Below, one piece after another: positions 4,201-41,159 of a DNA stretch of 41,220 bases. The notes beneath the pieces are model-generated. The model had not been told where the DNA came from. It ran no database searches and saw only the letters and a program-made list of their open reading frames with translations. The position numbers and the translations under genes are program-made. Within the stretch, counting starts at the first letter, position 1. The number at the start of each line of letters is the position of its first letter. Source of the stretch: Reclinomonas americana ATCC 50394 (Eukaryota); the NCBI GenBank assembly GCA_048213135.1, contig PS015024.1, forward strand, positions 33,809 to 75,028. Reading direction: 5' to 3'.

Positions 4201-7200
4201 GAGCGTGAGGAGCTGCAAACACAGCACGCGACGCTAGAGAGCGAGCTGAAGCGCGAACAAGCGGTTGGTCGCCGGACAAAGGTGCGTTGCCGACGATGGT
4301 GCTGTCGACTCTCTGTATTATTTCGTACTCACGCAGGCACGCATGCACACGCACACACAGGAGGAACTGCAGAAGCGCATGGATCAGCTGCGAAAGAAGG
4401 AGCGTTCCAGCATGGAGAATGGTACACGAGCCCGTGACCTGGAAGACGAGGTTCACAGACTCGGCGAGCGCCATGAGCAGATGCGCCAGTTTGTCAGCCG
4501 ACTCAGCAGCCTGATGGCGGCCCGGCGATCGCTGAGTGCCACTGGCATGGGTGAGTCGCCTAGTTGCATCCATAGGAGAATGAGAGTCTCACCAGTTTGT
4601 ATTGTCGTAGCTGCTCTGGATGGAGACACGGTGTTGCTGGAGGCAGCGCTGTTTGAGCAGGATCTTCCACGCTGCCTGGAGCGCCTCGGCACCTGGCTGG
4701 ATGAGGTGTGTCGCTCATAGCCGCGTACCGTGTGTACGCAAGTAGAGGCACTCACGTGTGTTGTGTGGCATGCAGACTCTGGTTGCAGGAGAGGATGCAC
4801 AGCGCATGACCGTGCAACTGGAGGCCGCCGTGCTGGAGCTCGCTCGAGGTGTGGAGGCGATGGAGGCGCAAAACAAGGTGGCCACCAATGGTGAGTTGCT
4901 GTTCCGGCACCCGGCACTTGTCTACTGCATTTCTGTTGTCTCACCATGCTCACAGACTGCCAAGAGCTGCGCGGGTTGCTGGAGCAGACGCTCAGCGACC
5001 GACAACAGTTGGAGTGTGAGGTTCACCGGCTGCAGGGCCAGTTGGAGGCTCTGGGACGGAAGACCGAGAAGGCACAGGCTGATGTTACTCACCAGAGTGC
5101 GCCACCGGCCCCTGTCCACGAGGCAGCTGCCACCCAGACGCAGGCGCAAATTGACGAAGCAGCGCAGCGCATGACGCAAGTGGAGACTGAACGTGCACGA
5201 TTGGAGACGCAACTGAAGGAAATGCGCACTCGTATGGAGAGCAAGCGTGAGCGGTGGGCGAAGCAAAAGGATTCGTTCAAGCAGCAGTCGGAGCAGTGGG
5301 CACAAGAATCGGCTGCACACCGTGCCGAAATGGACCGCCTGCGTGACCAAGTTGCGGAAAGCGACGTATATCTTGAATCGCCCCTTGTCGCCATGTCACT
5401 GACGAGCGCGTGAACAACACACAGTTGACTGAGAGCACCGACAAGAAACGCGAGTTGTACCACAAGTGGCAAAAGACGCGCGACGATCTGCAGCAACGCG
5501 AGTCCACCATTGCGTCACTGAAGAGCATGGTATGCATGTGTGTTCATTTTATCTCCCGACTCGTGAGCTGACTTGTTTGCGCTAGATTGCCGAGCTGCAG
5601 AGTAAGGCTGAGGAGTCGGAGATGGAGCGTCGCAAGGCTACCACTCTGCTGCGTGAGATGCGCGACAAGAACGTGGAGCTCCGCACGCAGTTGGACGCGC
5701 GTACGCTCGTCTCCAGTCGACACGCCGACGATGTTGTCACGGAGAAGAACAAGGAGATTCATGCGCTCCACGCAGAGCTTCGCGACGCGCAGAACCTGCT
5801 GGAGCAGAGTCGCGACTGCCTGCAGAAGCTGGAGGCTTCATGCATGCAGCGGGACTCGCAGATTCAGAAGCTGCATGCAGATTTCACCAGCGCCAACGCC
5901 AGAGTGCGTGAGCTGGAGGCCAATGCCGAAATGGATGCCACCACGCGTCAGCAGCTGACAGACGACAATCGACAACTGCGCTCCAACTGGCAGTCGATGC
6001 AGGAGGAGAGTCGCCGACACAACCAGCAGTTGCAGGAGTCACGCGATACGGTGAGGGGCAAGTGAAGCGCGGAGGTGTGACCCCTTTGTGTGCAAGGCAA
6101 CTCAACGTGTGTTGTCTGTTGTTGCAGGTCGCGCATCTTGAGGCCGAGGTTATCAAGCTCTCGACCAATCTGCAGTTGGCACAGCAGCGCATTCATGAGG
6201 TCCAAGATGCTGGCGAGCGAGCCAAGTTGCGCCCAGATTTTGTCTGCACACTGGCGCTTGCGGTGAGCTCATCTCTTTTTCAATTGTTGGCTGCTTGTCA
6301 GGTCACGGACGCAGGCCAAGAGCGTTGAGCGCAAGAAGATGGAAGATGAGCTGCGCGACGCCAACGATCGCAGCACGAAACTGCAGGAGGAACTGGAGAG
6401 CAAGTTGCGTGTTTTGTGAGTGTCACGGCGTTGTCTTGTTCGTCGTGCTCAACAGAATGCTTTGTGTCGTGCAGGCTCAAGAAGGTCCGCAAATTGACGG
6501 AGCGCGTGACGGAACTGCAGAACAAGGGTCAAGCAGATGAGCGGAAACGCGCAAACATGTCCAAGGAGCTGGAGAAGCTGCGATTGAGTGTGGTGCAGCT
6601 GGAGAGCGAACGCACGCAGTTGCAAAGGTGCGTTTTGCACGACACAACACACAAAGCAGTTTCTCACGACAGTTTTGTGTGCCACGTACAGTGCAAACAA
6701 GGCTAGTTCGGCCGTCCTGGCCAACCTGCAACTCGAGGTGCGTGAGCGAGACACGCAGATCCGAATTCTGCGCGATTCGCTGCACGTGTCGGAGCAGCGT
6801 GCCGGTGCGTTCGAGTCGCAGACGCGAGATGTGGAGCGGGCATACAGCAGCGAGTCACGTGAGTACTGTGGTGCTTATTTGCGTGACTCTGCCTGTTGCT
6901 GAGCTTGCGTGTCGCGGCCATGCAGAGCGACTGCAGCGTGACGGTCAGCAGTTTGGTCAATTGTGCGCAGCCGAGGCAGCAGCTACTTGTGCGCGCCTCC
7001 TGGCCAAGCATGTGGGCTACACTGACTCGGCGGCCACCGAGGGGAGGGCAGCGAATGGCGACGATGATGGAGATGACGATGGTGGCATCGGCAGCGGCAC
7101 GTTCTTGTCGGGCTTTGCTGCAGAGCTGTCGGAGCAGCAACAGAGTTGAGTGTTCCTCCGTGGCATGCATGCAACTGATGGGCGATTGGGCTGACCCGAC

Positions 7201-9202
7201 AACATTCTCGTGACAGGCATGAGCAAGCACTGGGCTCCACTGCTTCGCGAAGTCCGAGCCAATGCGCAGCGCATGTGCATCGATGTGGCCGAGTTTGCCA
7301 AGCGCAAGATTGCACAGTTGCACGGTCGAGCTGTGCGGGAGACGGAACGAAGGGAGAGCGCAGAGCGCGCACTGTCCGAGTCAGCGGAGAAGCTGTCGTT
7401 GCAGAGTGGTGCGGCGGAACAACGCATGCTCTTGATCTCTTGGTGGGGCGGTGACTGACTCGCGTTGTGTGCTCTGCATCTAGCGCTGCTGTCGTCGACC
7501 GTGTCTGCTCGCGAGTCGGTGGAAGCTCAACTGGCCGAGTACAAGGTACTCCTCGGCAGAGATTGCCTCCAGCAGCGTATGCATGCACGTGTTCACTGTG
7601 TCTGTGCACAGCAAATGGCTGCCAAGGAGCAGGCTGCACTGCGCGAGCAAATGGATCGACTGCAGGAGTCGGCTCGTGAGCACAAGGCGCAGGTGAAGAC
7701 GTTGGAGAAGGAGGTGCGCCAAAAGTCGCAAGACTCGGCCAGTGCTCGTGACGACCTCGGCAAGCGGCTGGAGGAGGCACAGTCGCGCATTGCGGAAATG
7801 GAGGAGCGAGCTCGGACCGCCGATGAGACCATTGCCGGTCAACGTGAGCGGTGAGTTTATCCAGCACTGGAAGCAAGGAATTTGTGAAGCTGACATGCAT
7901 GTGCGTGCTTTCCACAGCATTCAAACGCTGTTCAAGCAGAACGAAAAGGCGCTGAAGACGCGCAATCGTACCTCCGAGGAAGTACATCGACTGCAGAAGC
8001 AGGTGGTCAAGCTGCAGACGCAGCTGGATATGGAGACGCAGGTCAGTCCGATCGTTGACTCCTTCACTTCAAGCACTTGTTCACGGTCGCTACAGGCAAA
8101 ACGCACCACGCAAGAGGAGCTGCGTGATCGAACAACCAAGCTCTCACGAGCACAGGCTGAGATCCGCACGCTGAAGAGCAAGCTGGAGCACAGCGTGGAA
8201 GAGGGCAATGTTGCGTGCGTCGCCTCCCAGGCGGAGAGCGACCTGGCTCAGTTGCAAGTCGAGGTCGCCGGCCTTCTCTCGTTCTCGTCCGAGGTCAGTG
8301 TGTGACAAGGAGGTGACGGTGCTCGATATCCTGTAGTGTTGACTTGCCTGTGCACACAGATGGAGAAGCAGTTGGCGGCCGCGCTGCAGGACCTGCAGAT
8401 GCGCGACGAGGAGAACCGAGAGCTCGCCAAGGCGTACACGGTGTTGGAGGCCGAGTACCTCGACTACGTGCAAGTGCAGGAGATTGAGACGGCGAGGCTG
8501 AGTGCGCGCTGCGAGCAGCTGCAGCAGTTGTACCAGAACCGCTACGATAGCGCCATGGCCGCGCCCGCGCCAACTCCGACACCGCCGCAAGTGCAAGCAC
8601 CAGCACAACAACAGACCCCGGCACCGGCTCTTGCGCCGCCCGCCACGCTGATTACGCCTGCCACGGCGCCACCTGCAGCACCGCCGGCGCCGATTAGTGC
8701 ACCGACGCCCATTTTGCAGGCACCCGCATCAGCACCCGCTGCACCACCAGCCCCCACGCCAGTGGAGAGTAGCGAGAATCGATGGTTTACGCCGTCGTTC
8801 CGCCACCCGTCCATTGTGTTTCCGTCGTCGTCCGCGTCCGTGTCCACCGTAGCCACGACAGACAGCGCCACTCGACGACACGTGCAGCTGGTGTTGCCGC
8901 AAGAGTCAGTGTCGCCACAGCTGACGGCCACTGACCTGCTGGACATGGATGCGAGTGTGCTCGACTCGGGCCGTGCCCTGGCCGCCACTCGCGCCGCCGC
9001 TGCGGCTGCTGCCGTGGCAGCCGAGCAGTCACTGAGTGGTCACATGCCCTCAGCTGCCGCGCAGGCATTGGCCGACGAGACGCCACTGGTGCTACGTAGT
9101 GGGGCCGCCAAGCCTGCTGCTTCATCATCAACATCCATGGGCCCACCACCACCAAGTGGCTACGCGCGAATGTTTGGCGAGAAGAGGCGAGCGCAGCGGT
9201 GA
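1205..9202 (+). CDS. Very large coiled-coil protein (about 2000 aa, about 27 exons) with low-complexity N-terminus and Pro/Ala-rich C-terminus
   Basis: 26 short GT-AG introns join E/Q/R/L-rich heptad ORF segments in a consistent frame from ATG 1205 to TGA 9202; a 20-N gap at 1899-1918 interrupts exon 1. No specific family recognised. Confidence 0.8.
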
Positions 9203-9299
9203 TTTACACATTACAACCTTTACCCTCCTTTCGTTTCCCTGTGATTTTTGTCGCTGTATTATGTAAATGCACACATGTTTTTTTGGTTTACTGCAATGT

Positions 9300-12200: not shown

Positions 12201-12809
12201 GCTCGTTCCCATGCCCACATACGCCGCATTCAACGTCGTCGTATTGAGCAGCACCTGTTCTGCACCACGCAGCCGCCGTGGAGGCACATCACCAACACGA
12301 TACGGTCGCCGACAGTACACCGACGTGTTATGCCCCTCGTCCACACGCTCATAGTACCAGTAGCCGCGACACAGCTCCGCCGTCGATGCGTGCGTCGGCG
12401 ACAGGCACTCACGCATCTCCTACGCACACATACACACACACACGAGCAGTCGTCGTCAGCAGCAGGCAGCGCGCAGACAACTCCACGAGTGGTGGAATGC
12501 ACATTGAGCAGCTGTCGCTTGAGTGCATCGTACGACGCTCCCTGACTGTGTGCGTATTGATTCTCTGCGGCAATGTGACTGCGCAGGAGGTGTCCTTGTT
12601 GTGCGTCTTGCATCCATGCGTAGGGATCGATGCGGCGTCGTGTGCCGCTGAAGAGCGATGATTCACTGGCGACAACACGGGCGATGGGTGGTGCAACGCG
12701 ACTGTGTGTGAGTGTGAGAGGGAGGGTAGATAGGGAGGTGTGGAGGGGGAGGGTGGGGATACACGTGCCTGCGCAGGAGAGCGCGGACCATGCCGCCCAC
12801 TCCACTCAT
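9300..12809 (-). CDS. Oligopeptidase B / protease II (prolyl oligopeptidase family S9A)
   Basis: Spliced product contains RIDPYAWM, GYWYYER, LRGYGAYG, VRGGGEF..WYKNGK..KMNSFHDF, nucleophile motif GMSAGG, RPDLF..AVLKAPFVDVL, EEWGD, SYSPYENI, NDARVP.W.P.KYVARLR and GGH; about 14 introns. Confidence 0.93.
11275..11470. repeat. GGAAGGGAG-type purine-rich low-complexity repeat inside an oligopeptidase B intron
   Basis: Tandem GGGAAGGGA units; on the coding (minus) strand this is a long polypyrimidine tract. Confidence 0.85.
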
Positions 12810-12884: not shown

Positions 12885-13720
12885 ATGAGGTACTGTACGC
12901 AGTGGTCGTCTGTGTGTCTTCCTTTCTCTTCTTCTCCTCCCTTACCCTTCCCCGCTACCCTCAGCGCCGCCACCACCAAAGATCTGCACCTGTCACACGA
13001 GTTCCACGCACCGGGACTCAAAGCACAGCACATTTACGATGTGCTCACTGATGGAGAGAAGCACGGGCGCATGATTGGTGCTCCAGTGACGCAGGAGGGA
13101 CCGGTGTGTGATGCCTGTGTGTGAGAGAGAGACAACAAGGAATCATGCGCAGTCTCATCATCGGGAATGTGCAGGCCGCCGTTGGTGTGGCGTACACTGC
13201 GTGGGGAGGGTACATTGACGGGTCGTACACGGAGTTGAGCCCGCCGCACCGCATCGTCTCGCAGTGGAAAGTGAGTGCGCTGCTTGCAAATTTTTCCGAA
13301 CACAGCAACTCACTCATTATCACACGCAGGGACGTTGCGCAGTCGCAGCATGCTGCGCATCCCCCAGCTCGCCGTTCACTAATCACTGACGTTCATCTGT
13401 GTGCTTCCGAGCAGGTGACTTTGCAGAGTGGTCGCAGGTGGTGTACACGCTGACGGAGACGGCGGCGGACACGGTGCACATGCAGCTGGATCATCTCGGC
13501 GTGCCGGCATCGTGGGGTTTGTGTTCCCTGCAGTCCTCTGGGAGTGCCTCGCTCACTATCTCCGCAACGCAGAGCATGGCTGGGACGCGCACTACTTCCA
13601 GCCGTTGCAAAAGCTCGTCGTCTTGCTCTCTGTCTCGCGATATCGATGAATAATGATGGTGAAGCGCTGACTTTGTCACTCTGGCACAGATACCTGACGG
13701 AGGAGCTCGGCAGCAAGTAA
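12885..13720 (+). CDS. Small AHSA1-like START/SRPBCC domain protein
   Basis: Spliced product MSAATTKDLHLSHEF..IYDVLTD..YTAWGGYIDGSYTELSPPHRIVSQWKGRDF..QLDHLGVP..GWDAHYFQPLQKYL resembles the AHSA1 C-terminal domain; the model needs a 4-nt microexon and probably a GC-AG last intron. Confidence 0.82.
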
Positions 13721-15188: not shown

Positions 15189-16371
15189 CTATGACATTGG
15201 CTTGCGAGCGTGACAGGCCCACAGCTTGGCGCCACTTTCCAGCTCAATGTACTCGGAGCGCACCAGTAGCCACTGCTGCTCGACATGCGGACCGAATAGC
15301 GACGCGTGAGCACGTTCCGAACTGACGCCGGAAAACAGGAGAAATGAGCCGCCTGGTCGAAGGCATCGATGGACGACGCTCACGGCTGCAAGAAGAAGAA
15401 GGGAGAGGTGAGCGATGCTCCTCGACCGCGAGGGAAGGGAAGTGCGACGCACAGTCACGAATGATGGCATCGTCGGCCGAAAACGCGGTCCACAGCGCGT
15501 CGAGTCCGCCCTTGTCGAGCACCAGGTCGATCGATGCCTCGCGAAACACCAGGTCCTGAAAGCGAGAGCACACGGCATCCACCTGCGCGGAGCGATCGGA
15601 GGCACGCTGCTGTCGTTGCGCCAGGAGCAGACCTGCACCAACAGTCAGTTCATGCAGTTCACTCGCCAACGAGCGTTCCGGATCCGCACCACTTGCCGCA
15701 ATATCGGTGTTGATCACGTGCCCGCACCACGCCTCCTCGGCCAGTCGATGCCCGACATCCGACGATCCGGCGCCCATGTGCACGCACACCAGTGCCTCCG
15801 CGGCCTCCACGCCTGCCACAGCCGCCCGCACAAACGACTGCACAGCCTCGTAGCCGGCGTACCACTCGTACGAGCGACCATTGCCGTCGACGTAGAAGCT
15901 CTCCCAGTACGCTGGCTCCACGAATGGATCGACGCCCGATCGCCACGCTTCGCGAGTGCACGCTCGGAGCAGCTCCGCGCACTCGTGATGGTCACGCATC
16001 AAGGCCACTGCGCACATGTTACGCCTCAGCCAGCGAGCAAGCCACAAACAGAGAGAACGCAACGAAAGAGTGGTGTCTGCTCGAATGCAGTCTCCGCCTC
16101 GACACATGACTCAAACAGACGCCAGTGTTGCCTCAACAGCTCGAGGCACTCGGTGTGTCCTTCGAAGGCGCACGCATGGATGGCGTTGCGATGCGTGGAC
16201 GGGTCGAGGAACATGGACTCTGTGTGCCAGTCAGCAGCAAGCGAAGGTGAGAAGCGGAGAAGAGAGATGTCGACCTTGGCATTGTGCATCGTCCGGGTCG
16301 GTGGAGGCGAGCAGCTGGCTTACACACGCGACGTCGCCGACCTCGCAGGCGAGGTACAGCCGCTCACCCAT
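15189..16371 (-). CDS. Ankyrin-repeat plus class I SAM methyltransferase (EEF1AKMT4/METTL13-N-like)
   Basis: Ankyrin-like segments LYLACEVGDVACVSQLL, AIHACAFEGHTECLELL and TPLFLALMRDHHECAELL, then YWESFY..YEWY, HMGAGSS, NTDI, DLVLDKGGLDAL and RCLRPGG; 4 introns. Confidence 0.85.
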
Positions 16372-16410: not shown

Positions 16411-17015
16411 ATGTCGGCTGGCGGATCGGAGCCGTCACCAGCAGCGACCCGCACTGTCACTGTGCGCTTTCGTGCGGAGCAGGTGTGTGTGTGTGTGAAG
16501 GAGATGTCTCTCTCTATTGTCGGTGTCGCGTCCCTGAACGATCAAGCAGGTGACTGCAGAGTGGGCAGAGGGATCTTCCGGGACCGCCATCCGCGGTCTC
16601 ATTGGCCAGCTGCTGTCAGTGCCTCGAGAGTCACTGAAGCTCAGTTGAGTCGGCGGTCTCTCTCTCGCTGCATGCCGATCTCTCACGAGAGAGAGTGTTG
16701 TCATGATCGTGGCAGTCGATGGTTCGCGAGTTCTGACAGATGACGATCTGGCGGCCTTTTCGGGCCACGTGCTGATGGCCATGGGCACCAGGGTGGATCC
16801 GGCCACCGACTGCTCACCCGAGTCCATTCAGCTGATCATGCGTTGCGCACACTTGAACACACTTGTTAGTGCTTCCGATTTCGTGAGTGTGTTGATCATG
16901 CCTGGATGTGCGTGCAGAGCAAATGCCGGGTATGACACGCGATGCTGTGATTGCGGCACTTCGCCGGCACAAGCACGATGTGGTCGATGCCATTCTCGAT
17001 CTCGGCAACTCGTAA
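16411..17015 (+). CDS. 129-aa protein with putative ubiquitin-like domain and NAC/HYPK-type UBA domain
   Basis: Exons 16411-16482, 16550-16643, 16716-16841 and 16918-17015 total 390 nt. TVTVRF..IRGLIGQLLSVPRESLKLI.GSRVL..LMAMGT is UBL-like; ESIQLIMQQMPGMTRDAVIAALRRHKHDVVDAILDL is UBA-like. Confidence 0.7.
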
Positions 17016-17270
17016 GTAAACGTCAGTCTTTTTTCGGTTTTATCAGGGGCAGTCGTCGACAAGGAGAAGGAGGCGGAAAGAACAACGACCGAGAGGTCAA
17101 GCGAGGCACAGTGGTGTGCACTCGAATGTATAAAGCGGGGAGAGAGAAAGGAGGAAAGGATTGTATGCAGCAACAGACACCAGAGAACATATTAGCAGCA
17201 TCCCTTCTTGCGACCGGCGGCCGTCAGCTGCGGTTGCGTCGGGTCGTCCAGCACACTGTGACGTGACCTA

Positions 17271-20200
17271 TCAGAGGAGAACAGAACGACACGAATGATG
17301 AGGGTCAGCGACAGGAGCAGTGGCACCAAACGCAAGGAATGGACGCAACGGCGGTCGAGCCAGCTCCTCCGGCGTCTTGCGCGCGATCAGCGCGAGCGTA
17401 AAGTCAGCCACAATGTCCTGCAGGTGCTTGGGCGTGTCGGCCACCGCCGAGGCGCGGAAGACTTTTGTGAGGCCCTCGCTTCGGCACAGACGGGCTATTT
17501 GGTGCTCAGGGACCGTCGCCGGCAAGTCGGCCTTGTTGACCACGATCGATTCCATGAACAGCTCGCCACCCTGCCGCCGTGCAGACTCAGCAATGGCCGC
17601 TCGCTTCCAGTGCGGAATCGCCTGTGTGCGACAACACCAAACATGAGCTCATCCCCATCTCCATCATGGGCGATCACGGCCACCAGCGCACCTCCAGTGA
17701 CGAGGGATCAGACTGATCAAACATGAACATGATGCCGTCGGCACGGTTAAAGTAGTTGCCGAGCAGCTTGCACTCGCGATCCGAGCCTTGCGTGTCCATG
17801 AGCTGCATGCAGAAACAATGGTGAGACACGCTGTGCACCAACTCCACAAGATCTGCAACACCGACTCAAATTCCATGACGCACCCTGACCAGAGTGACCG
17901 ACTCGTCGGGGTGTCGCAGGCGCAGAATCACCACATCCACACCGACGGTAGGTGTGGTCGCTGCACAATCGCATCGCAGATGCGTGTGAGAAGGAGACAC
18001 GATAATGATTCCATGCGTGTCATGCACTCACCAGCAACGTGCTTGCCAGTCGAGTTGGCACAGAAATGGCTCTTGCCCACAGACGAGTTGCCGATGAGCA
18101 AAATCGTGACGGTGCGGCGAGCCTTGACGCCACCGCTCTCGTCCTGTACTCAAAATGAGTAACATAAAGGTCAAAAGGCCGACAAGAGCACTCGTACCAT
18201 GAACTGCAGCTCCTGTGCCTCCGCACTCGGCTCATTGAACAGCGAGCCACCACGCTTGGCCAGCCACTCATCATCCAGTCGGCGCAGGTCCTCCTGCATC
18301 GCAGCCGAGTGAATCGACTGACTTCAACAACGTGACAAGGAAAATAAAAACCAACAACCCACCTCAGTCAACTCTACGGCCTCAACGGCCTCCTCCACCG
18401 CCTGCTCAAGAGAAAGACAGAGAGAGAATTGGGTTATGCTACTGCTCAACATGTGGATCTCACGAATGGAAACCGCACCTCCGAAGCACCAGTCGCGACA
18501 CTGCCAGCAGCCTCACCGGCAGCGGCCGATGCGTGCGACGCAGTGGCATCGGCGCGGTGCACCAAGTTACGCTGTCACACACAACAAGCACGAATAAGAC
18601 AAGAATTCGTGTCGTGAATATGACGAGCAGTGACAACACACCAGTCCCTCGGTGACCGTGCCCGTGGCCGAGTGCACACGAGATGCGGCCGAGTCGCGCA
18701 AGTGCTCAGCCTCGTGGGCGGCCTTGGCGCGAGCCTCTTCCGCGGCCTTCTGTGCACGCTCAGCCTGTGCGTGCGCCTCCTGTGCAGCCTTGGCGCGAGC
18801 CTCTTCAGCCGCCTTTTGCGCATGCTCCGCCTGTGCATGTGCCTCCTGCTCAGCCTTGGCACGAGCCTCCTGTGCGGCCTTCTCTGCGCGCTCCGCCTGA
18901 GCGTGAGCCTCCTGCGCAGCCTTGGCACGAGCCTCCTCAGCGGCCTTTTGTGCATGCTCCGCCTGCGCATGCGCCTCCTGTGCAGCCTTGGCACGAGCCT
19001 CCTCAGCGGCCTTGCGCACTCGCTCCGCTTCAGCATGCGCCTCCTGCTCGGCCTTGGCACGAGCCTCCTGCGCAGCCTTGGCTGCACGCTCCTCCTGCGC
19101 ACGCACCTCAGCCTCAGCAGCCTGTGCCTTGGCGCGGGCATCGTGCTCGGCCTTGGCACGAGCCTCCTCGGCGGCCTTGCGCACACGCTCTTCTTCGGCA
19201 TGCGCTTCGTGCTCAGCCTTTCGGCGAGCCTCCGCTGCCTTGGCCTCGGCTTCTGCGCGAACCTTCTCCCGCTCAACAACAGCGTCGTCCACGGCGAGAT
19301 GAGCCTTTTCTCCGGCAGCCTTCTCCGCCTCGTGCACCGCACCCTGTGTGAGCGCCGCGAATCAGTGAAATCTCACACGCGCACAGTGTGTGAAACCACG
19401 CGCACCTCTGCAGCACCAGCAGCCTTCTCGCCCTCTCCCACCATGTGCGCACGGAAAAAGTCCTGGTGAATGGCAGGCGTGTCTCCCAGCTTCGCCTTGT
19501 TCTCCAAGCGCAATTCGTGGGCCAAACGCTGTCATCGTTCCACAACTCCCCCCGCATCAGCAACCGAAAATTTCCCAGCAGCGTGAGAAGGATACACACC
19601 TCGGCCTCTGCGTCCACTGCATCCTGCGCAGACGCCGTCGCCGTGGTGGTCGCTGCCGGCGCATCACCCAGCACCTGATTGTCGAGTATGAGTGTCATGA
19701 CAACAGTGATCCCGACGTGAGAGAGAGTGGGTGGACAAGTAACACACCGCCGAGGCCACAATGCTCGACGCCACTGCTCCGGTCTCCTCCGAGTCCGACT
19801 GCAGAGAGTGTGCGCGGGAAGAACAAGTGAGTGCAGAAGTCGACAATGGCTGGACATGTTCCCCGCGTGACCTCGAGGCTCTCCGGCGACAAGTACACAA
19901 CACCCCTCACTCTCATGTGCCAGGAAAGAGCGCGCACAGACATCGCGACTCGCAAGATCATCGATGCAGTTGTCGGAATACACACATTGTATCTTCCTCA
20001 CACACGCCCACTCTCCTGCTTCTTCTCTGTCTCTCACACACAGAGCACAACGTACCTCAGTGCCAGAAGCATCAGAGTTCTCAGCACTCTGCAAAGGCAC
20101 AGAGGGAGAGACAGAGGACATATGAGTTGCAAGATTGCGATTGAAGACAAGTCTCGTCACGCAACCGCTGCAGCCTTCTCCGCAGCCGGTGCACTCTCCG

Positions 20201-20388
20201 CACCACCCTTCTTTCCTCCCTCTGCGCACAAACACAAACACACACGCGAGTGGCGTCAGTCGTGTCGACATTACGACATGGCCAAACAACATAAACTGAA
20301 CATGAAAGAGCAAAAAAACACACAAGCAGGCAAGTGTCGAAAGACAGTGAGTGGAGACGCAACTCTTCTTGCGGCGATTCGACGGCAT
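17271..20388 (-). CDS. Large Rab/Ras-like GTPase: polybasic N-terminus, Ala/Glu/Lys repeat helix, C-terminal small GTPase domain
   Basis: GTPase motifs ILLIGNSSVGKS, TPTVGVD, LMDTQG, VVNKAD and RASA lie in 18293-17271. They join in frame to the upstream repeat region via a 69-nt GT-AG intron at 18362-18294. The GTPase call is strong; the fusion is inferred. Confidence 0.72.
18721..19240 (-). repeat. Coding tandem repeat with 66-bp (22-aa) period, AKAAQEAHAQAEHAQKAAEEAR
   Basis: gccttggcRcgagcctc recurs at 18721, 18787, 18853, 18919, 18985 and 19051 (66-bp steps) and at 19150 (99-bp step). Confidence 0.95.
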
Positions 20389-25327: not shown

Positions 25328-26520
25328 CTCACGTATGGCGTCCATGGATCCAGCAAACTTGACGACCTTGACGGCCATCATCTCTCCCGTGTCCTCGTTC
25401 AGCGCTGCAAACACTTCGCCGAACGCACCCTTGCCTAGCAATGCGCCCTTGACCCATCGCTTTAGTGGGCGCTGCGAGGAGGACAGTGAGCGAGTGCGAA
25501 AAGCAGAACACAACACCCACGCCACGCCACGCGTCTCACCTCGCGAGTTGTCGTCCTGCTCGATGCTCTGCACGGACCACCATCAACAATGAGCGCTTCT
25601 TACACACTAGAACGCACACGAGGTGCGACTCCACAGCCACACGCACCTTGATCGATTCACCGAGCTCGACGAGGCCATTGATCTGCACACACAACGAAAA
25701 TGAGGCGCAAAGGACAACAACAACGATGAGTGCAGAGAGGCCGCACCCTGACGAGGACGCCGAATCGAAGCGTGACGACACATAGCTGGCTACGTTCTCG
25801 CCGGGCGACAGACCACCGCCGTTGTGCATTCTCGGAGACGGACTGAGGTTCGTATTGATACTGGGAGCGCGAGGTCGAGCAGACTGCACCGCAACACTCG
25901 GCGGGTTATACGCGTCTTCTGGTGGTGGTCGCGGTGGTTCGTCTGTCAACGTCTGCACGTGCTTTCTCTGCGCCACGCGCGATGGCAACGACATGTCACA
26001 CACACGCGCACACACACACTCTCCACGGCACTGCAAGACACACACGCACGCAACTGCTGCTGTGACGCTAGTGTACGCTGCTGCAACACGCAATCCCCCA
26101 CTCGACGACGACGAGTCACTCCGCGATGAGGGACTAGTGGCCTGCTGCTGTTGAAGTTGATGTGCGACAGGTGCCAAGGTCGATGAACCGCTGCTTCCTG
26201 CACGCCGCAGATGCACCGGTTGCTCCGGCGCACCAAGTCCCCACTGCTCGTCTCCTCCTCCTCCTACTGCCGCTGCAGAACCACCACGCGGAGCCACCGC
26301 CTCCTCCTCAGCCTCCTCCTCGTCTGTGGTGTCCTCGTCCGACTCAAAGTCTGAGTTGGTGTACTCGGTGTGCACCTGCCCGCGCGCGTGTGTGTGTGTG
26401 AGACTCTGCCTCTGTGTCGGCGCATGACGGTGCACGTACACACACCTCGTCGTCGTCACTCTCTACTGCACGCTGTTGCTGTTGTTGCTGTTGTTGTTGA
26501 TTGCGCACGGCACTACTCAT
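25328..26520 (-). CDS. MAP3K (STE11/MEKK/NPK1-like) 5' part, copy 1
   Basis: MSSAVRNQQQ.. low-complexity N-terminus spliced to RWVKGALLGKGAFGEVFAALNEDTGEMMAVKVV (kinase subdomains I-II); ends at a phase-0 donor at 25327. Confidence 0.85.
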
Positions 26521-27060: not shown

Positions 27061-28412
27061 ATGGACGCGCTGCTCTCGCGCTTGCCGAGTGCACAAGAGC
27101 GCGAGGCACTGGGCACTCTGCTGGTGACCGTCTCCTGCGCACGGCGGCTGCAGTGCGACGCGCGCCACTTGAATGGTGAGTCATGCACAGAGAGAGAGCA
27201 GTTTCTTGCGCATGACGAGAGGAAACGCATTTCTTGCCTTGTGTAAGCCGCCCGATGCGGACATGTTCAGGCGGCGGTGGAGAGAAGATGATGCGGGAGG
27301 GTGAGAGAGTGAGCGTGTGCGTGTCGGGAGAATGAGAATGTCGATGATTGATGGATGGTGAATCGCGGGATTGCGTTCCTTCTCTCTCTCTCTCTTTGCT
27401 TGTCAACGGTCATTGTTCGCTGTTCACACTCTCTCACTCACTCACACTCTCTCTCCACTCACACACAGGTGAGTTCAGTGTGGCCATTGAGGTGGACTCG
27501 CAAGTGAAGAGCACGCGGCCGGTGTTGTTGGATGACAAGTTCGAGCTGACCTGGGATGAGTCGTTGTCGTTGTTGCGTCTCTCTCTCTCTCTCTCTCACA
27601 CACACGCACACACGCGCACTCAGTGAGCTGCTCTGTGTGTGTTTTTTTATTGAGTACTAATGACGACGTATGTTCGGATCGGCAGTCACGTGCAGTCGCG
27701 ACGACCCAAGGTCGTGGTAATGCTGCTCGTGCGCGATCGATCACACGCATCATCATCGCCGACAATGTCGCCTGCGTCTCCGAGCAGTTTCATTGGTGAG
27801 TGCCCTCGGCGTCGTTGTTGCGAGAGACACGCGCTGATGTGTGTGTGTGTGTCTGGCACAGACGAGACCTCGATCGACTGTGTGGGCGCGTGTCGTATGA
27901 AATGCCCCGAGCGCGGATCAAAACTGCCGGTGGATCGGTGGTACTCGTTCCACACCACGGTCTTGTTGCGTACCCCGTCTCCCTTTCGCTCTCTTACTGT
28001 ATCTTCTCCGCGATTCACGACCGGTGCTTGCGCAGTGACGCGACACTGGCCATGGAGAACGAGTGGGCGGCCACGGGCGGATCATCGGCGTCGGCGTGGT
28101 CCGCCACGCAGACGAAACGCAAGCCGTCGGCGCTCAAGACGACTGCGGAGCAGGATGCCAACAAGTTCGGCGGCTCCTCGTCGTCGTTGATGCAGCGTCT
28201 GTCGGGCACCTCCAAGGCGCCGCTGGTGCGCCTGCCGGAGATTACACATACGGAGCGCGAGTTGCTGGAGATGGGCTGCCGCGCGCTGCGCTTCTCTGAT
28301 CTGCCGCCGCCGGATCAGTTCGACTCGCAGAACACGGTGGGCGAGGTGCGCTTGAGTGTGCTCTTTTCACCGTCGAAGAAGGATCAGGTGCTGTCGGCGG
28401 TCATGACGGGCA
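27061..28412 (+). CDS. C2-domain protein 5' part, copy 1
   Basis: LGTLLVTVSCARRL..FSVAIEVDSQVKSTRPV..LTWDESFHV..VVMLLVRD..CVGACRM..DRWYSF follows the C2 beta-sandwich pattern. Confidence 0.65.
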
Positions 28413-28630
28413 GTTGCGTGGCATGAATTCANNNNNNNNNNNNNNNNNNNNNNNNNNNNNNNNNNNNNNNNNNNNNNNNNNNNNNNNNNNNNNNNNNNNN
28501 NNNNNNNNNNNNNNNNNNNNNNNNNNNNNNNNNNNNNNNNNNNNNNNNNNNNNNNNNNNNNNNNNNNNNNNNNNNNNNNNNNNNNNTCTCTCCCTTTTTC
28601 GCATGCCCCATCTTAGTCTGCCACACCAAC

Positions 28631-29838: not shown

Positions 29839-30382
29839 GCACCGACCACCGTCGTGGTGTCACCAGAGGAGACTGACGCGGGAAAAGAGGCGCCGCGCAC
29901 ACGCACACACACGCACACACACGCCAAAGTGACTTGTCTCTCTCTCCTCGCACACACACACACAACCGCGCGCTTGTGCAAAGTCTGTAACACGCACAAC
30001 AACAAACAAGAGAAATTAGATGGTCGAATTCACAAAGTGTCAGAGCGCGCGACACACGCCTCTCTCAGTCACACACAAGAGAAGAGTGGCACAGTGGCGT
30101 GCGCGCACAAACACGAACAAGACACAGAGAAAGAGCAAAATAGAAAAAAGGCCCGAGATGTCCAATCACCAACCAACTTTTTTGCCGTTTCTCTTCCCCT
30201 CTCCCTCTCTCTGTGTGTAACACACACTCTCTCTACCACACACAGACACAGAGCGCGCGCACACGACACACGACAACACACACAGAGACACAGAGGCAAT
30301 CGCGCACCCTTTGCAACGTTCCGTGATCCACCGTTCCGACTCGACGGACCGGCTGCAGTGCGTTTCTATCTTATTGCGTGAA

Positions 30383-32758: not shown

Positions 32759-35163
32759 CAAGTGGAGCAGCTGAAGAACGAACTACACTTGATGCAACAA
32801 CTGTCGCACCGCAACATTGTCGAGTACTTTGGCTGCATGCGCGAAGAAACCTCTCTGAACATCTTCATGGAGTACGTGCCGGGCGGATCGCTCGCCTCGG
32901 TGATTAAGCAATTTGGTCGTCTCTCGGAGCCACTGGTGGCGCGCTACACGCGTGAGATTCTGTTGGGGCTCGAGTATTTGCACCGGAATCGCGTGGTTCA
33001 TCGAGGTGAGATGTCGGAAGAAAGTAGAGAGAAGAGATAATCATGTGGGGCGGAAGCGTGTCACGAGCTGGTGCTTCAGATGCTCACTCTCCACTCTTTG
33101 ACCAGATATCAAGGGCGGCAACATTCTCGTGGACCAAAACGGTACCTGCAAGCTGGCTGACTTTGGCGCCTCCAAGGTGCTCGATCTGGCCACAGAACTC
33201 GGCACTGCGCAGGGCCAGTTTAACACCGTGCGTGGTACTCCGTGGTACATGGCTCCCGAGGTTATTCGAGAGGACGGTCATGCCAAGTTGAGTTGGAGGG
33301 CATGAGAGAAGAGTTCATCAAATCACAGTCTGACAACTGTGCTTCTCCGCAGACCGGCTGACATTTGGTCGTTGGGCTGCACCGTGATTGAAATGTGCAC
33401 CGGCTACCCGCCGTTCTCGCAATTCCGCAAGCCCGTGCAAGCCATGTTCCACATCGCCGCCGGCACAACACCACCCGTCATTCCCGAGCACCTGTCATCA
33501 GCGGGTCAGGTACGCATACATGCAACACGTTTTTGGTGTGGTGTTCATGCGCCCATTCTCACATTGCTGCATCGTCGTGCACAGGATTTCATCAAGCTGT
33601 GCCTGCGACGCCTACCACAGGACCGACCATCCGCGAGTGATTTGCTACAGCATCCGTTCATCTCTGGTGTACCATCCATTGAGTTGCGCGCGCGCGCGCT
33701 AGCGTGGCCCCACTTGTCCTCCACCGCGAGACTGACGATACTTAGCTGCAGTGACGCGCCACTGACACCCACATCGCCCACCGGCTCGGCCTCCATGTCG
33801 TCCAGCGGCGGATCGTCACACTACCTGACACCAGCAAGTAGCATTCGTGGTGCAGCTGGTGGTGCTGGTGGTGGCGGCAGTGGTGGTGGTGCGCCCGCGG
33901 CACCCATGTCGTGGCGACCTTCATCGTTGCGTGCACGTGGCTTTCTTTTTTTGCTTGCTGCTGCTTCTCACACGTGTTTGTGTCGATCGACGTATCGCAG
34001 AATGAATCAACGAGAAGACTCGATGGCCACGATTGGCTTGCTGGATGCTGCTGTCGCGCAAGCGTTGCGTTTTCACCGACCCACTCCTGTTGGTTTGTTG
34101 TTGGTTGTTGACGTGTGGTGGGCGACACAGTGGGCCGCGACCACGCCGCGGAAGCCTGGTGGCTCACGCCCCCGAACACAACCCGGCACTGGAGCTCGAG
34201 CTGAAGCGAAAGCTTGCTGTTGACGACGAGGACTGTGTGGTGAACGCGGATGATTCAATATTGGTGGCGCCCGCAGCCGAGGGCTACGATCGCAGCGAAG
34301 ATGTGGAACGGTGGCTGTCGGAGGTTAGCTCCTTCCGTGACGACACCATCCGCAAGGTTTGTGTTCACGAAGAAGTGTCGTGGCGATGCATGTGCTCATG
34401 TCTCCTCTCCGCCCGGTCGCAGTCGCTGCACCTGGACAAGCGAACAATAACCAAGGCCTCGAGTGCGAATAGCCGCTCGGCGCGCGAGGCGCACTCGGAT
34501 CTGGTGACGACACCGCTCTACGATGACAAGCGAGAAACGCCTTCAGCCGTCCGCAAGCCGTCCCAGCCGAAGCTGTCGCCGAGGAAGCGCAGCACCAGCC
34601 ACTTGGACGCGGCACCGGAGGCTGTCGAATTGCCGGACGACGACATGATGCCAGCACCACCGGCTCGGGTCTCACTAAAAGTCGACCCGCCTAGCGCCTC
34701 GTCCACCACCACCACCACCGCAGCGTATGCCTCTGTCCAGTCGCTCTCTGGCGCCGCACCGAGCTTGGAGGACAGACCAATTCGAACGGCGGCAGTGGAG
34801 GCGGATCGTGCGCGAGTTGAGCAACTCAGACGAGAGGAGGAAGAGAAGCGGAGAAAGGATGAGGAGAAGAGACGACTGTACGAGGAGGAGGAACGACGAT
34901 TCCGTGCCGAGTTGCAGAAGTCGCCGTCGGATCCAGGCAGGCGAGATACCGTGTCACCCGTGTCGCCCGACAAGCAGCGGCGATCCATGCCACGCGAGCT
35001 CGGTCGCAGTCCATCCAGTGGTCCTGCCAACCCGAACACTCGCCGTCGCTCCCCGACGCCCACTGGCTCCGGTTCGTTGTCGGCCGCCCGGCAACCATCG
35101 TCGCCACCTGGCACCGGGTCCGACTCGGCCGACGCCGCTCGACGCCGACCACCTCCACGGTGA
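32759..35163 (+). CDS. MAP3K (STE11/MEKK/NPK1-like) 3' part: subdomains III-XI plus C-terminal tail
   Basis: [78 protein letters not shown] and [12 protein letters not shown]. Confidence 0.93.
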
Positions 35164-35407: not shown

Positions 35408-36345
35408 TCATCTGCCATGCGGCACCGCCGACACGGTGGCCGTCGTGGCCGTCACCACCGCCGCCGCAGCCGACGACACGGATGCCGACAGCGGATCATT
35501 CTCATACTCGACCCAGACATCATCGACGACTCGCGCCCACCGCTCATCCCCACCCGCATCGTGCAGCGTCACATGCCGCGGAGCCATCTCGCCGACCTCG
35601 TCCTTGTCGCCAAGCACATCACACCCCGACAGAGTCGATGACACATGCACATAGGAGATGGTCACCTCCAGCCTGACCGCGAACAGTGTGAGTCTCTCCA
35701 TCTCACTACAGAAGACAAGCGCGTACAACAGACCGACTGGGCGATTCCAGCGCCGTGCCGAACAGAATCTCCGGCCATTCCACAATCGCCACCCCTTGTA
35801 ACAGTCAGTGAGACAGTGTAGACAGGCAAAGAGTCAGAGGGCTGCTGAGAGAGCACCTTGTCGCGTGCACTCGGGCAGCTGTAATCTGTGCACCTCGTCA
35901 ATGTGGCGCAAACGGTACAGGTCAAAGTGATGGATCGCTGCCAGCGTGCGATGTGAGTGTCAAGGTGTGAGAGACATTGAGCGAGTGAACGGGGTCTGCG
36001 CGCGCAACGACATGCCACCGCGGAGTTTGTCGCGTTGTACAGATTGTGCAGGAGGAATGTCGGCGAGGTGACCAGCTGTTGTTGTTGCTTCTGCTCCGAC
36101 ACCTCGCCCAGCAGACCGCGCACGAGGCCGCGCACAAAGGTGGTCTTGCCCGCGCCCAGATCACTGCGTGTATGTGAGTGTGAGAGTGTGTGAAGAGAGA
36201 GAGTTGAAAGGAGTGATTGCGCGCACCCTGTGAGGTAGATCACACTGCCTTGAAGTGGTTGCCGATGAGCGAGCATGTGGCGCGCCAGTGAGTGGCCCAG
36301 GTTGAGCATGCGAGAGGCGTCGCGGATGAGAAGCCCGTGCTGCAT
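35408..36345 (-). CDS. tsaE: tRNA t6A biosynthesis ATPase TsaE (YjeE) homologue with spliceosomal introns
   Basis: VIYLTGDLGAGKTTFVRG, VTSPTFLL, HHFDLYRL and VAIVEWPE are the four TsaE signature motifs; at least 4 GT-AG introns; the true 5' end may lie upstream. Confidence 0.92.
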
Positions 36346-37804: not shown

Positions 37805-38974
37805 TCATGGTGGCCTCCGCGCCTGCAACTGCTTCTGCTGCTGTTGTTGCAGCCAGCGTTCAAGCTCCTCTGCCTGTTGCGCCATGTCGTCTTCGTCGTC
37901 GTCAAAGTCATCATCGAAAAAGTCGTCCAAGCCGTCGAAGTCCTTGGCGGCGGCCGACCTTGTCGTGGTCGTGGTCGTCGTCGTTGTTGTGGTGGTGGTT
38001 GTTGTGGACGTGCTCGTGCTTCTGCTGCCGCCAGTCGCGGCGATGGCGGTCATTGGCGGCAACTGCAGCTGCGGCGTCGGAAAGAACGGCGCCGACATGG
38101 GCAGACGCAGTGCCATGGACAGCGGTGGCACATACAGCGATGCCGATGGAGGTGCGAGTGGAGCTGGCGGTAGTGGTGGCGGCGGTGGCGGTGGTGGTGG
38201 TGGTGGCGGTGGCGGTGGCGGTGGTGGTGGCGCCGCCTGTCCAAGCGAAAACGGCGGCATTCCGCTCCCAGAACCCACAGCCCAACTCAACAGCGGGCTG
38301 CTGGAGACTGCGCCACCGAACGGCGACATGGCCGGACTGTCGGCAAACGCATCGACACCACCCGGTCGCACCGCCACATGCGCCGCCATTGCACCAGCAA
38401 AGCCCGGAACAGGCGGCGACGGCACACGCCGCAGAGAGTCCATGGGCACTCCAACCAGCGACGGAGGCGCCGGCCTGCCAGCGGCCGCCGCCACCTCCGT
38501 CAAGTGCTGTAACAACCCTGAAATTTGAGTTGCATGTCTCCCTGTGCACAAACACTCCAATCGCACGCAACATTGCGCAGCTCGGTCTCCGAGATGAACA
38601 AGTCGGCCTCCGTCGCGCCCACCGCCTGCGCCGCCTCCACCAACCGTTCCCGTTCCGCACGCAACTGCGTCTCGCGCTTGCTCAACGCCTCACGCACACT
38701 CCACAACACATAGTACTCGGCCTCCAAGTCCGCCATCAAGTGGTGCGCTTGCTCCACCTTCTCCCATCGAGCACTGCATCGACAGTGAGCACGCAAGCGG
38801 AGCGAGCGAGACACAGAGCAGTCAACATGCACACCGACCTGTCATTCTCCACACCAGAATCCGGCACCTCCGCTGCACTCTGCAGTGAGTCACACACGCA
38901 CTGGCGACACAGAGACAAGCTCGCTCACCTGGTGGCCGGTGTCGCTTGCGACTGCCCGGTCGCGTTCCCACCAT
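37805..38974 (-). CDS. Uncharacterised protein: basic N-terminus, short coiled coil, poly-Pro/poly-Thr and acidic tail
   Basis: MVGTRPGSRKRHRPP spliced through 3 introns into ORF 37805-38566. Confidence 0.6.
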
Positions 38975-39046
38975 CCCTCGTTACGTACACAATCACAAGA
39001 GGACGACGAGGACAAGTCTCTTATCTTCCTCCTTCCTCTCGCCATC

Positions 39047-40821
39047 ATGTTCACCGCGATCCTCGTCGCGCTGCTCCTCACGCTCTTCCTGATCGTGTAC
39101 GTGGCCCTGGTCAGCATGCGATGGGTGACCGGCAGCTGGCCGACATCGCTCAAGTCGGCGGCAATGCCTCCGGTCGCCGCACTGCTCACCAGTGACACAC
39201 TGGCCTTTGTGCGACGACTGTGGACGCAGCGAGTGCGCGAGTGCCGTTGCTCACCTGCACGCGAGTTTGTCGTCTATCATAGCGCAAGGTACGGGTGCGC
39301 CACGTGGTGGGATTGAGTCTGTGTCTCTAATAATCCTGCTGTAGCAATCCACTGTCACTGTTGACGCTACAGCTGGTGATGCGACTGGCGCAGCGGTATC
39401 GGGATGTGCAGGTGACTATGCGTACGATCCCCAGTGCGGAAAGCGAAGTCGCGTCAGGATCGCCGGTGCACTTGTCTCGGGAGTGGGCGTTGCGCGATGC
39501 GCTGATGGTGGCGCCGCACTATGGCCTGCGTCTGCCACGTCCTCCGTTCATGACAGCGGCAGCTGACGGAACGGTCGATGAGGAGCGACGGAAGCTGTGG
39601 GAGGAGCACATGGCGCACTGGCAGCGTATGCTGGTGGCGGCCGAGTACGAGTCGAGTGACGCGTATGTGCGTGTGGCGTTCCAGGCGTGGGAGGATGCGG
39701 AGGAGGTGCCGCCGGATGGCGATGCCGTGGAGCTGGTGTTAACGACGGACTCGCTGCTGGCGCTCAACATGCGCGAGCTGGTGGGGCGCGGCTACTATTC
39801 GGCGTTGCGTTGCTTGTCGGCGGGCCACCTCGTGGACGAAGAGCTCATTCTCTCTCAGCGGCGTGGTGTTCTACGACGGCGAGGCGTTCACCTTCAACCG
39901 ACTGCACATGCTAGCGGCCAAGATCGGCGACAGTGGCACAGTGACGGCGCCGCTTCCGTTGGAGTTGGTGCCGACACCTCTGCCGCGCACCACCAACTTT
40001 GTCAACTTTTTCTTCTCCGTCCGCAGGTGCATCGTCCCCAATGTGCATCCTCGCCACCGAAGACACTGTGCTCACTCCACTCATTCGCTTTCTCAGCCCG
40101 TACTCCTACCTGGCGTTCGACCGTGTTGTGCACCTGTGCATCGAGTACGGTGCGTGCACGAAAATCAGCTCACCCTCTCTCTCTCTTCTCCCCCAAGTTC
40201 TCACTTTTCCCTTCCATCCCCTGACACCAGGACTGCACCTTCGCCTGCGCTTCCTGCTGCCCATGGTACGCCGTGGCATTCCACTGTCCACGGCCAAGCG
40301 CGCGTACATTCTGCAGGACGCCAAACGTGTGGCCAACAGCCTCAAACTCCCGTTTGGTTGGATCTGCGACCCGCTCGGCGACGGTGCCGAGCGTGTTCTC
40401 CAAGTCGGCCACTACCTGTCGGCCCTCGACGGTAGCGCCGAAAGCAGTGCCGGCCCCAACGTTGCCGCGCGCTGGTTCTCTGCCGCCATGCGCGGCATCT
40501 TCAGTCTCGGGTGGGATGTGGCGACCGACGCAGGCCTGCGCCGCGTGGCCGACCGCGCCGCCGTCTCCTGGCCAACCGTCGTCGAGGCACTGGAGCAGCC
40601 GGCCGAGGTGTGGCAGGAGGAGGCCGAACGCAACCGGCAAGAGCTGGAGGCGCTCGGCATGTGGGGCGTGCCGGCCTTCCAGTGCGACCAGTTCACCGCG
40701 TGGGGGCAGGTACGTCGGTGCATGTAACGCCAAAAACACACTCGCTCACACACGCGCTCCACAGGATCGCATCTGGCTGCTGGAACGGTGCCTGGCCGCC
40801 ACAGCCGAGGCCAGCAAATGA
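39047..40821 (+). CDS. Tandem DsbA/HCCA-isomerase (kappa-GST-like) protein with N-terminal hydrophobic anchor
   Basis: Second domain has FFFSVRSPYSYL, LLPMVRRG..KRAYILQDAKR..PFG.ICDPLG and GMWGVPAF..WGQDRIWL; degenerate first domain ends GYYSAGVVFYDGE..NRLHML; 5 introns. Confidence 0.82.
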
Positions 40822-40825
40822 ATAC

Positions 40826-41159
40826 TCATTCGTCTTGATGATTGCCACGACGATACGGATGATCTGCATGCATCACTTGTCAGCTAAAGGGGGGGCGGGG
40901 ACACCTGCAACGACGCAACACTGCATGTCGGCCCACTGCTCGCCCACAGCATAGTCCAGTGCCTCCACCGTCCCCATCTTGGCGCCCTGCAGCATGTACA
41001 CTGTGTCGCCACACAGCAAATCAGTGGCGAAAGCACAATCAACACACTGATGATCCTTGATGGCGCACCTGGTCGCCCATGTCGCACGATGATGAACGTC
41101 GGCAATGCCACCACAGCATACGCACTGGCTGCATCCACCTCCTGATCCACATCAATCTG
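40826..41159 (-). CDS. Thioredoxin-fold protein, 3' part (5' end beyond window)
   Basis: IDVDQEVDAASAYAVVALPTFIIVRHG..LQGA matches the thioredoxin C-terminal half; the last exon is inferred. Confidence 0.75.

Follow-up and report, generated by a model that had tools for sequence, protein, structure and literature searches.

A candidate sub-class of 5' splice sites, GTTGCG and GTTGAG, in a window of the Reclinomonas americana genome and its possible recognition in a shifted U1 register

Gene content and gene models

We analysed one window of DNA from Reclinomonas americana ATCC 50394 (contig PS015024.1; 41,220 bases with seven gaps of N, about 59% G+C outside the gaps). The window holds dense eukaryotic genes with short introns in large number, and this report concerns the modelled introns among them that begin with GTTGCG or GTTGAG. 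These donors form a well-supported sequence pattern, for which we infer a mechanism involving the U1 small nuclear RNA (snRNA). All class frequencies given below come from this single 41-kb window, which includes one tandem duplicate. The genes on which the analysis draws are the following.

1205-9202, plus strand: coiled-coil gene of great length, modelled with about 25 introns and more than 1,700 residues, occupying a fifth of the window
9300-12650, minus strand: S9 oligopeptidase-B-like gene
25285-28430 (copy A) and 28589-31741 (copy B): tandemly duplicated segment (about 3.15 kb; identity 95.3%, 83 gap positions); the minus strand holds a kinase N-terminal gene, the plus strand a C2-like gene
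25331-25480 and 28631-28771, minus strand: N-terminal part of a MAP3K-like kinase domain, one per tandem copy
32699-33671, plus strand: C-terminal part of the kinase, beyond a 943-base gap (31743-32685)

The MAP3K-like kinase pieces on opposite strands are either separate genes cut by gaps or the product of a scaffolding inversion.

Genes were modelled with a generalised hidden Markov model gene finder that combined codon usage learned from the window itself, a simple bonus for acceptor and branch signals, and a length penalty. In the donor-blind run the donor was scored as 'GT' only, giving 107 introns; a second run used a first-order donor model learned from the gene finder's own output and gave 111. 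Exons bounded by strong ordinary introns numbered five, too few to train the gene finder, and the self-trained codon model is dominated by the coiled-coil gene. Pfam searches were made on stop-free exon pieces. The oligopeptidase-B-like gene was mapped with a position matrix from 36 full-length homologs and a splice-aware dynamic programme that knew only GT and AG; the alignment spans 14 introns, with well conserved junctions. These 14, together with three introns of the kinase domain, make up the 17 homology-mapped introns referred to below. The introns of the tandem copies concentrate the differences and indels between them, so that the pair is a useful internal guide to exon limits.

Donor motif and frequency

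The original prediction had listed 24 introns beginning GTTGCG or GTTGAG, among about 124 modelled by hand. All 24 coordinates carry the motif on the strand given, 21 of them as GTTGCG and three (7145, 16644, 33287) as GTTGAG. GTTGCG was the commonest donor hexamer of the donor-blind run, with 11 introns (plus two for GTTGAG) among the 107, and in the run with the self-trained donor model it tied with GTGCGT, each accounting for 15 of the 111. On both strands together the window contains 53 copies of GTTGCG, 22 of GTTGAG, 64 of GTGCGT and 52 of GTGAGT. In the donor-blind run 11 of the 53 GTTGCG copies were used as donors, compared with 107 of all 5269 GT sites (2.0%; binomial p = 8e-9); the 11 further hexamers that share its base composition were used at 11 of their 443 occurrences. 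GTGTGT is the commonest GT hexamer of the window, with 160 copies, and several modelled donors are GTGTGT.

The donor-blind run picked 11 of the 24 listed donors and the self-trained donor model 14. Beyond that list, 17349 (minus strand) and 27572 (plus strand) were chosen in both runs and 30890 (plus strand) in the second. The motif and its excess use as a donor were confirmed in this way; several individual sites were not, nor was the claim that the class makes up about a fifth of introns (24 of about 124, 19%). That share is probably too high, since the class accounts for 13 of 107 introns (12%) and 17 of 111 (15%) in the two models and for one of the 17 homology-mapped introns. We put it at about 10-15% of the introns in the window.

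These donors are set in a background of great variety. GTGCG, GTGAG and GTACG, which had been taken as the usual donors, make up just 21 of 107 to 36 of 111 modelled donors, the remainder being degenerate. The 14 peptidase donors are GTGCAT, GTAAGT, GTGCAG, GTTTGT, GTGCGT, GTGGGA, GTTGGT, GTACTG, GTTTTC, GTCTGT, GTAGGT, GTTCGC, GTCCAC and GTGGTC, with G at position -1 in ten and T at +3 in four. At +3, T ranks second in frequency in both models (23 of 107 and 25 of 111), and donors forced by a single solution include GTCTGT, GTTTCG and GTGCAT. Overall, this organism defines its 5' splice sites unusually loosely.

The GTTG class is nevertheless not a product of one degenerate consensus. From independent position frequencies, 1.08 class members would be expected in the donor-blind run and 0.78 in the self-trained run; 13 and 17 were seen, which supports a separate class.

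In other respects the class introns look ordinary. They are 55-142 nucleotides (nt) long, with a median of 72. All 23 that we modelled start with GT, end in CAG and have open frames on both sides, and a branch-like YTVAY motif ([CT]T[CGA]A[CT]) lies 7-45 nt before the acceptor in 19 of the 23 (it is lacking at 6404, 16063, 26054 and 38571). We rejected a family of introners or transposon-derived introns, as the 23 share nothing beyond the donor (no blastn hits among them at E <= 0.01). U12-type introns were rejected because the RTATCCTT start occurs at none of the 24 sites. A homopolymer error in the assembly was also rejected: it would leave the exon base at -1 unaltered, and the tandem copies agree with each other.

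Individual sites with supporting evidence

At the sites listed here as modelled introns, evidence for a GTTG donor comes from homology, reading frame, the tandem copies or the gene models.

33287..33352, plus strand: GTTGAGTT...CCGCAG, 66 nt, kinase domain, flanked by GHAK and PADIWSLG; the class member with the firmest proof
16008..16063, minus strand: GTTGCGTT...GCGCAG, 56 nt, between TPLF and LALMRDHHECAELL
27965..28035, plus strand: GTTGCGTA...GCGCAG, 71 nt, C2-like gene, copy A; same donor in copy B at 31281
27572..27685, plus strand: GTTGCGTC...CGGCAG, 114 nt, C2-like gene (copy B, 30890-31003); beyond the original list
6226..6301, plus strand: GTTGCGCC...TGTCAG, 76 nt, long coiled-coil gene; picked by the donor-blind run
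7145..7216, plus strand: GTTGAGTG...TGACAG, 72 nt, coiled-coil gene; picked by the donor-blind run
34064..34130, plus strand: GTTGCGTT...ACACAG, 67 nt, joining the kinase frame to a long C-terminal frame; picked by the donor-blind run
16842..16917, plus strand: GTTGCGCA...GTGCAG, 76 nt, where a UBA-like domain begins; chosen in the donor-blind run
17256..17349, minus strand: GTTGCGTC...CACAG, 94 nt, before the last exon of a Rab-like gene; picked by both models, beyond the original list

The intron at 33287 interrupts a conserved domain. The upstream exon matches positions 124-173 of the Pfam Pkinase profile and the downstream exon positions 178-204, and the four residues at the junction (H, A, K, P) take up exactly the four profile positions that separate these matches. 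A homolog could be aligned without gaps over 12 residues (tblastn, P0006). The donor is the sole one in frame at its position and was chosen by the donor-blind model. A cut one base later, which would make this a TT-AG intron, was rejected because it would break the kinase frame; cleavage must fall before the G. The position of the cut at GU is fixed by the Pkinase profile at this junction, and elsewhere it is deduced from the reading frame.

Two further sites had been described, like 33287, as forced by frame in conserved domains. At 16063 no GT-AG solution other than that with the GTTG donor links the flanking frames in phase and free of stops, and this donor was picked by neither model. The upstream exon matches Ank (residues 44-64; Pfam), and the repeat spacing across the junction was judged against what we take to be the ankyrin consensus. 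The remaining site, 39804, fared less well: its flanking pieces have no Pfam match to DsbA, and an alternative donor lies at +12 (see below). Only the kinase junction can be called proved.

The tandem duplicate offers a different kind of evidence. At 27965 a 5-nt indel and a cluster of substitutions separate the copies, between near-identical flanks, indicating that the stretch is non-coding. GTTGCG is kept in both copies, and splicing yields one open frame over four exons; the two in-frame alternatives have non-consensus donors. The donor-blind model chose the donor at 27572 in the same gene. With the 114-nt form the four-exon frame stays open, and in copy B the model chose this form as well.

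Of the two coiled-coil gene introns, that at 7145 is the sole in-frame solution with a YAG acceptor, and the alternatives at 6226 require other acceptors without a branch-like motif. The donor at 34064 is the only local in-frame solution, with many solutions once long introns are allowed. The exon downstream of 16842 has a weak UBA match (profile positions 12-34, starting from its second residue; E 0.05), and an alternative donor at +27 would add nine residues.

Sites with alternatives and doubtful sites

At another group of listed sites a GTTG intron can be modelled, in most cases with an in-frame alternative.

6404..6474, plus strand: GTTGCGTG...GTGCAG, 71 nt; picked by the donor-blind run, ambiguous
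5351..5424, plus strand: GTTGCGGA...CACAG, 74 nt; ambiguous
39804..39858, plus strand: GTTGCGTT...CTCAG, 55 nt, between GYYS and AGVVFYDGE; picked by the donor-blind run
22834..22926, minus strand: GTTGCGTT...CGCCAG, 93 nt; picked by the donor-blind run
23379..23451, minus strand: GTTGCGTT...CCGCAG, 73 nt; picked by the donor-blind run
35938..36008, minus strand: GTTGCGCG...TGGCAG, 71 nt, TsaE-like gene
40864..40919, minus strand: GTTGCGTC...ATGCAG, 56 nt; picked by the donor-blind run
20222..20363, minus strand: GTTGCGTC...GCGCAG, 142 nt, following a first exon of 25 nt; chosen in the donor-blind run
20089..20165, minus strand: GTTGCGTG...TTGCAG, 77 nt; picked by the self-trained donor model only, sole YAG solution
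22049..22114, plus strand: GTTGCGTT...ATGCAG, 66 nt; picked by the self-trained donor model only, four in-frame alternatives
25968..26054, minus strand: GTTGCGTG..., 87 nt (or 102 nt); same donor in copy B at 29375, picked by neither model
38507..38571, minus strand: GTTGCGTG...TTACAG, 65 nt, open frame on both sides, alternative at +18; picked by neither model

Several of these have a competing donor close by and in phase. An ordinary GTGAGT (GTGAGTGT) lies 12 nt downstream of 6404, and an in-frame GTATAT, favoured by both gene models, 15 nt downstream of 5351. The alternative at 39804 (GTCGGCGG) would give a 43-nt intron, and a protein search with the DsbA-like exon there returned no hits. 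The sites at 23451 and 36008 each have an in-frame GTCGTT donor (GTCGTTGC) 3 nt upstream; the TsaE-like gene matches Pfam TsaE at positions 24-65 in the exon upstream of 36008 and 69-95 in the exon downstream. One alternative at 40919 would leave a 41-nt intron. The site at 22926 lies in a low-complexity region with several in-frame alternatives, and for the short N-terminal exons at 20363 the coding evidence is weak. The frame is open on both sides of 26054, yet 23 in-frame solutions exist; a 9-nt indel between the tandem copies falls just inside the intron.

The remaining sites of the list are doubtful or fail.

16644..16715, plus strand: putative intron GTTGAGTC..., 72 nt, upstream exon doubtful
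33683..33751, plus strand: putative intron GTTGCGCG...CTGCAG, 69 nt, a stop-free multiple of three; picked by neither model
33926..34000, plus strand: putative intron GTTGCGTG...TCGCAG, 75 nt, a stop-free multiple of three
13334..13414, plus strand: listed donor, probably internal to an ordinary intron
28413..28431, plus strand: listed donor, with a gap of N from 28432; the open frame stops four codons past the site

The gene models begin the gene near 16644 at ATG 16703, within the supposed intron. The stretches at 33683 and 33926 have lengths divisible by three and contain no stop, so that frame alone does not demand their removal: retaining them keeps the open reading frame 33306-34223 intact and adds residues only to a low-complexity linker of the kinase gene. 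The donor at 13334 would need a 4-nt exon (GGAC) after an acceptor at 13329 and is probably better explained otherwise. A single 140-nt intron with a GTGCGC donor (13275-13414, GTGCGCTG...GAGCAG) gives QWKVSDFAEWSQ in frame and a protein of equal length.

Other features of the window

The window gave no match to any Rfam family at the gathering thresholds. Microsatellites of CA/GT and CT/GA are frequent within its introns. A 302-residue frame at 23585-24490 had no hits in a protein search and no usable match in the ESM Atlas, and Pfam searches with the short C2-like, Rab-like and DsbA-like exon pieces gave no usable hits. The proteins nearest to the kinase exon are transcriptome-derived and at most 63% identical, so that the protein collection searched contains no close relatives of the organism. 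A metagenome scan with the same exon found 60 loci, likewise at most 63% identical, with no close relative among them, and gene modelling on seven of these was uninformative.

Flanking positions

For comparison of the flanks we defined ordinary donors as GT followed by a purine, any base and G (n = 33). The position after the motif is shifted in the GTTG class: T stands at +7 in 18 of the 24 listed sites, compared with T at +6 in 20 of the 33 ordinary donors. The exon side behaves in a corresponding manner. G occupies -1 in 24 of 33 ordinary donors and in none of 13 GTTG donors (Fisher 5e-6), or one of the 24 on the original list. The -1 counts of the GTTG class (A 6, C 5, T 2, G 0) resemble the ordinary counts at -2 (A 13, C 9, T 7, G 4).

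Donors with T at +3 that keep G at +5 (GTTGGN, GTTTGT) have G at -1 in five of five cases, compared with none of 13 (Fisher 1.2e-4), so that the preference for G at -1 is not abolished by T at +3 alone. The preference is lost when G and T move from +5 and +6 to +6 and +7.

Other donors with T at +3 occur at 3492 (plus strand), 11786 (minus), 34357 (plus) and 36868 (plus). GTTTGTGT, which is found twice and has G at -1, fits the ordinary register; GTTTGAGT resembles the ordinary core displaced by two bases and GTTTCGTG, with A at -1, another form shifted by one base. The shifted class may be wider than GTTG(C/A)G.

Proposed register of U1 pairing

We propose that the sub-class would be the preferred core G/GTGCGT or G/GTGAGT (the slash marks the cut) displaced one base into the intron, to give /G-T-TGCGT. 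Put differently, A/GTTGCGT would correspond to an ordinary AG/GTGCGT in which the first intron G has become T and the cut lies one base upstream. U1 snRNA would bind one position out of register, with the intron G at +1 substituting for the exon G at -1. The U at +2 would face C8 of U1 as a mismatch, and positions +3 to +7 would pair as +2 to +6 normally do. The cut would then be set at the sole available GU, one base upstream of the position that the U1 register indicates. That U1 is the reader, and that later steps (U6, U5, Prp8) choose the GU, is what we infer from this arrangement.

Pairing was calculated with RNAduplex and a consensus U1 end, AUACUUACCUG, which may not be that of this organism. 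The minimum-energy duplex lies wholly in the +1 register at ten of the 24 sites, is mixed at one, canonical-like at two and stray at 11. All extended duplexes with this U1 end, ten in number, are in the +1 register, and five of them have at least seven pairs.

Discussion

We estimate an even chance that two things hold together: that GTTGCG(T) and GTTGAG(T) do begin ordinary short GT-AG introns and constitute a distinct sub-class, and that the sub-class is read by U1 in the shifted register. Recognition in that register with cleavage at the only GU is accordingly graded here as an interpretation of moderate confidence. The +1 register suggested in the original prediction is supported in part, by the separateness of the class and its shifted flanks, and is not supported by the weak pairing predicted with consensus U1.

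A number of observations weigh against it. The mean duplex energy of the 24 sites is -1.7 kcal/mol, compared with -7.0 for 47 ordinary donors, and 11 of the 24 give only stray pairings of 2-5 base pairs. Two positions of GUUGCGU are mismatched in the shifted register, and the form that pairs better, GAG, is the less frequent (three of 24, with GTGAG:GTGCG at 10:21 among ordinary donors), the opposite of what compensation by pairing strength would predict. Donors of this organism are degenerate overall, so that U1 pairing may count for little. The flank evidence is also less sharp than it appears: only 13% of the window's GTTG copies are preceded by G, so that none in 13 is a missing enrichment and not a depletion, and the excess of A at -1 is modest (p 0.011 and 0.049). 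Finally, the gene models are noisy, recovering seven of the 14 homology-mapped peptidase donors, and none of those 14 is GTTG(C/A)G. Wrongly modelled donors are expected to be random GT sites, however, which would dilute the GTTGCG signal and not create it. The weak pairing and the rarity of the GAG form leave room for a variant U1, for a reader other than U1 and for a loosely defined 5' site.

One alternative keeps U1 in its normal register (G at +1 to C8, U to A7) and bulges one U of +2/+3, so that +4 to +7 pair as +3 to +6. Work in human cells has validated a register bulged at +3 (or +2), with 68 sites predicted and 54 left after curation (PMC4856993); it would leave the GU in its normal place opposite U1, and the minimum-energy duplex at 7145 is of the mixed kind. 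A register of this type retains the pair between G at -1 and C9, however, and should keep G favoured at -1, where none of 13 or one of 24 class members has it, set against 24 of 33 ordinary donors. The five donors that combine T at +3 with G at +5 do keep it. The general rarity of GGTTG (the 13% noted above) weakens this argument but does not remove it. The flanks appear to fit the +1 register better, and we regard the bulged U as unlikely. We also think it unlikely that no special register is involved, the sites being merely loose, with GT and little else, and TGCGT or TGAGT being read by a spacing-tolerant protein or by U6, or reflecting composition. This would agree with the variety of the homology-mapped peptidase donors (T at +3 in four of 14), with the second rank of T at +3 in both models, with the irregular forced donors and with the strong branch-like and CAG signals. 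It leaves unexplained why G at -1 is lost only when G and T sit at +6 and +7, and why GTTGCG is used tenfold more than hexamers of the same composition.

A more radical possibility is a dedicated system: a second U1 snRNA, or an altered U1/U6, whose 5' end would match AGUUGCGU, for example with A in place of C8. The major spliceosome would then contain two parallel systems for the 5' splice site, one with ordinary U1 and one with the second U1 or remodelled U1/U6 pair, and the latter would serve at least a tenth of introns with a cut offset by one base from the pairing register. Consensus U1 pairs very weakly in every register (the mean of -1.7 kcal/mol), the motif is specific nonetheless, with GCG strongly preferred, and exactly one motif position separates the two classes. 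Animals have variant U1 genes. Against this, the U1 5' end (standard ACUUACCUG) is among the most conserved RNA sequences known, and ordinary U1 predicts identical flank statistics. A second U1 strikes us as rather improbable, as do the existence of two parallel systems and the joint statement about their share and offset. The least probable account, in our estimation a very unlikely one, is that most of the sites are not donors at all and reflect gene-modelling artefacts in GC-rich sequence with long chance frames, or assembly errors. It draws on the better explanation available for 13334, the gap that follows 28413, the in-frame alternatives at six or more sites, the recovery of only half the homology-mapped donors by the models, and the single class member among the 17 homology-mapped introns. 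The site at 33287 is fixed by homology, though; false donors would be random GT sites and not one hexamer at 8e-9; and both tandem copies carry the same donors, while an assembly error would leave the -1 base of the exon unchanged.

If the shifted register is correct, these introns would be a natural system in which to ask how far U1 pairing can drift from the cut and what fixes the cut. In practice, about one in eight exon boundaries of this genome would be misplaced by gene finders trained on one donor matrix. We found no report of a GTTGCG/GTTGAG donor class in the literature searched, which does not show that none exists; lists of human sites may contain GUUGCGU.

Human sites that use the shifted register number a few dozen; in mammals such registers are rare exceptions, each established for one gene at a time. 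Shifted and bulged U1 registers have both been proved in human cells, where U1 can bind off the cut site (PMC4856993), and the cut is set later, by U6, after U1 has bound (works cited in PMC4856993). The same article treats the shifted register as distinct from the +2/+3 bulge register, which retains the pair at -1 G. The +1 shifted sites of mammals (Roca and Krainer 2009, as summarised by Tan et al. 2016, PMC4856993) resemble the class described here in being cut at GU, in matching the consensus from +2 when read from intron position +3, in having an exon -1 base that behaves as the consensus -2, and in placing U+2 opposite C8 of U1. They differ in being rare, compared with about one intron in eight of the window, in unrelated genes; and the core here is G/C-rich (UGCGU) and pairs poorly with consensus U1. 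The sites with a bulge at +2/+3 (Roca et al. 2012; Tan et al. 2016, PMC4856993) share GUU followed by a consensus tail, with an extra U between GU and the downstream pairing block; they keep the pair of -1 G with C9, whereas the present class has no preference for G at -1. On this basis a U1 helix that is out of register can still yield a cut at the nearest GU, as we propose here, although the cases described in those works are experimental constructs or single genes and not a natural class found genome-wide. The weak-consensus U2-type introns of intron-rich protists have the same GT and AG ends, short length, YTVAY-like branch and CAG acceptor, but in them the base at +3 would not predict the place of the following G and T, nor abolish the preference for G at -1. 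Noncanonical U1 registers are known; what would be new, if borne out, is their abundance and a G/C-rich core in a protist.

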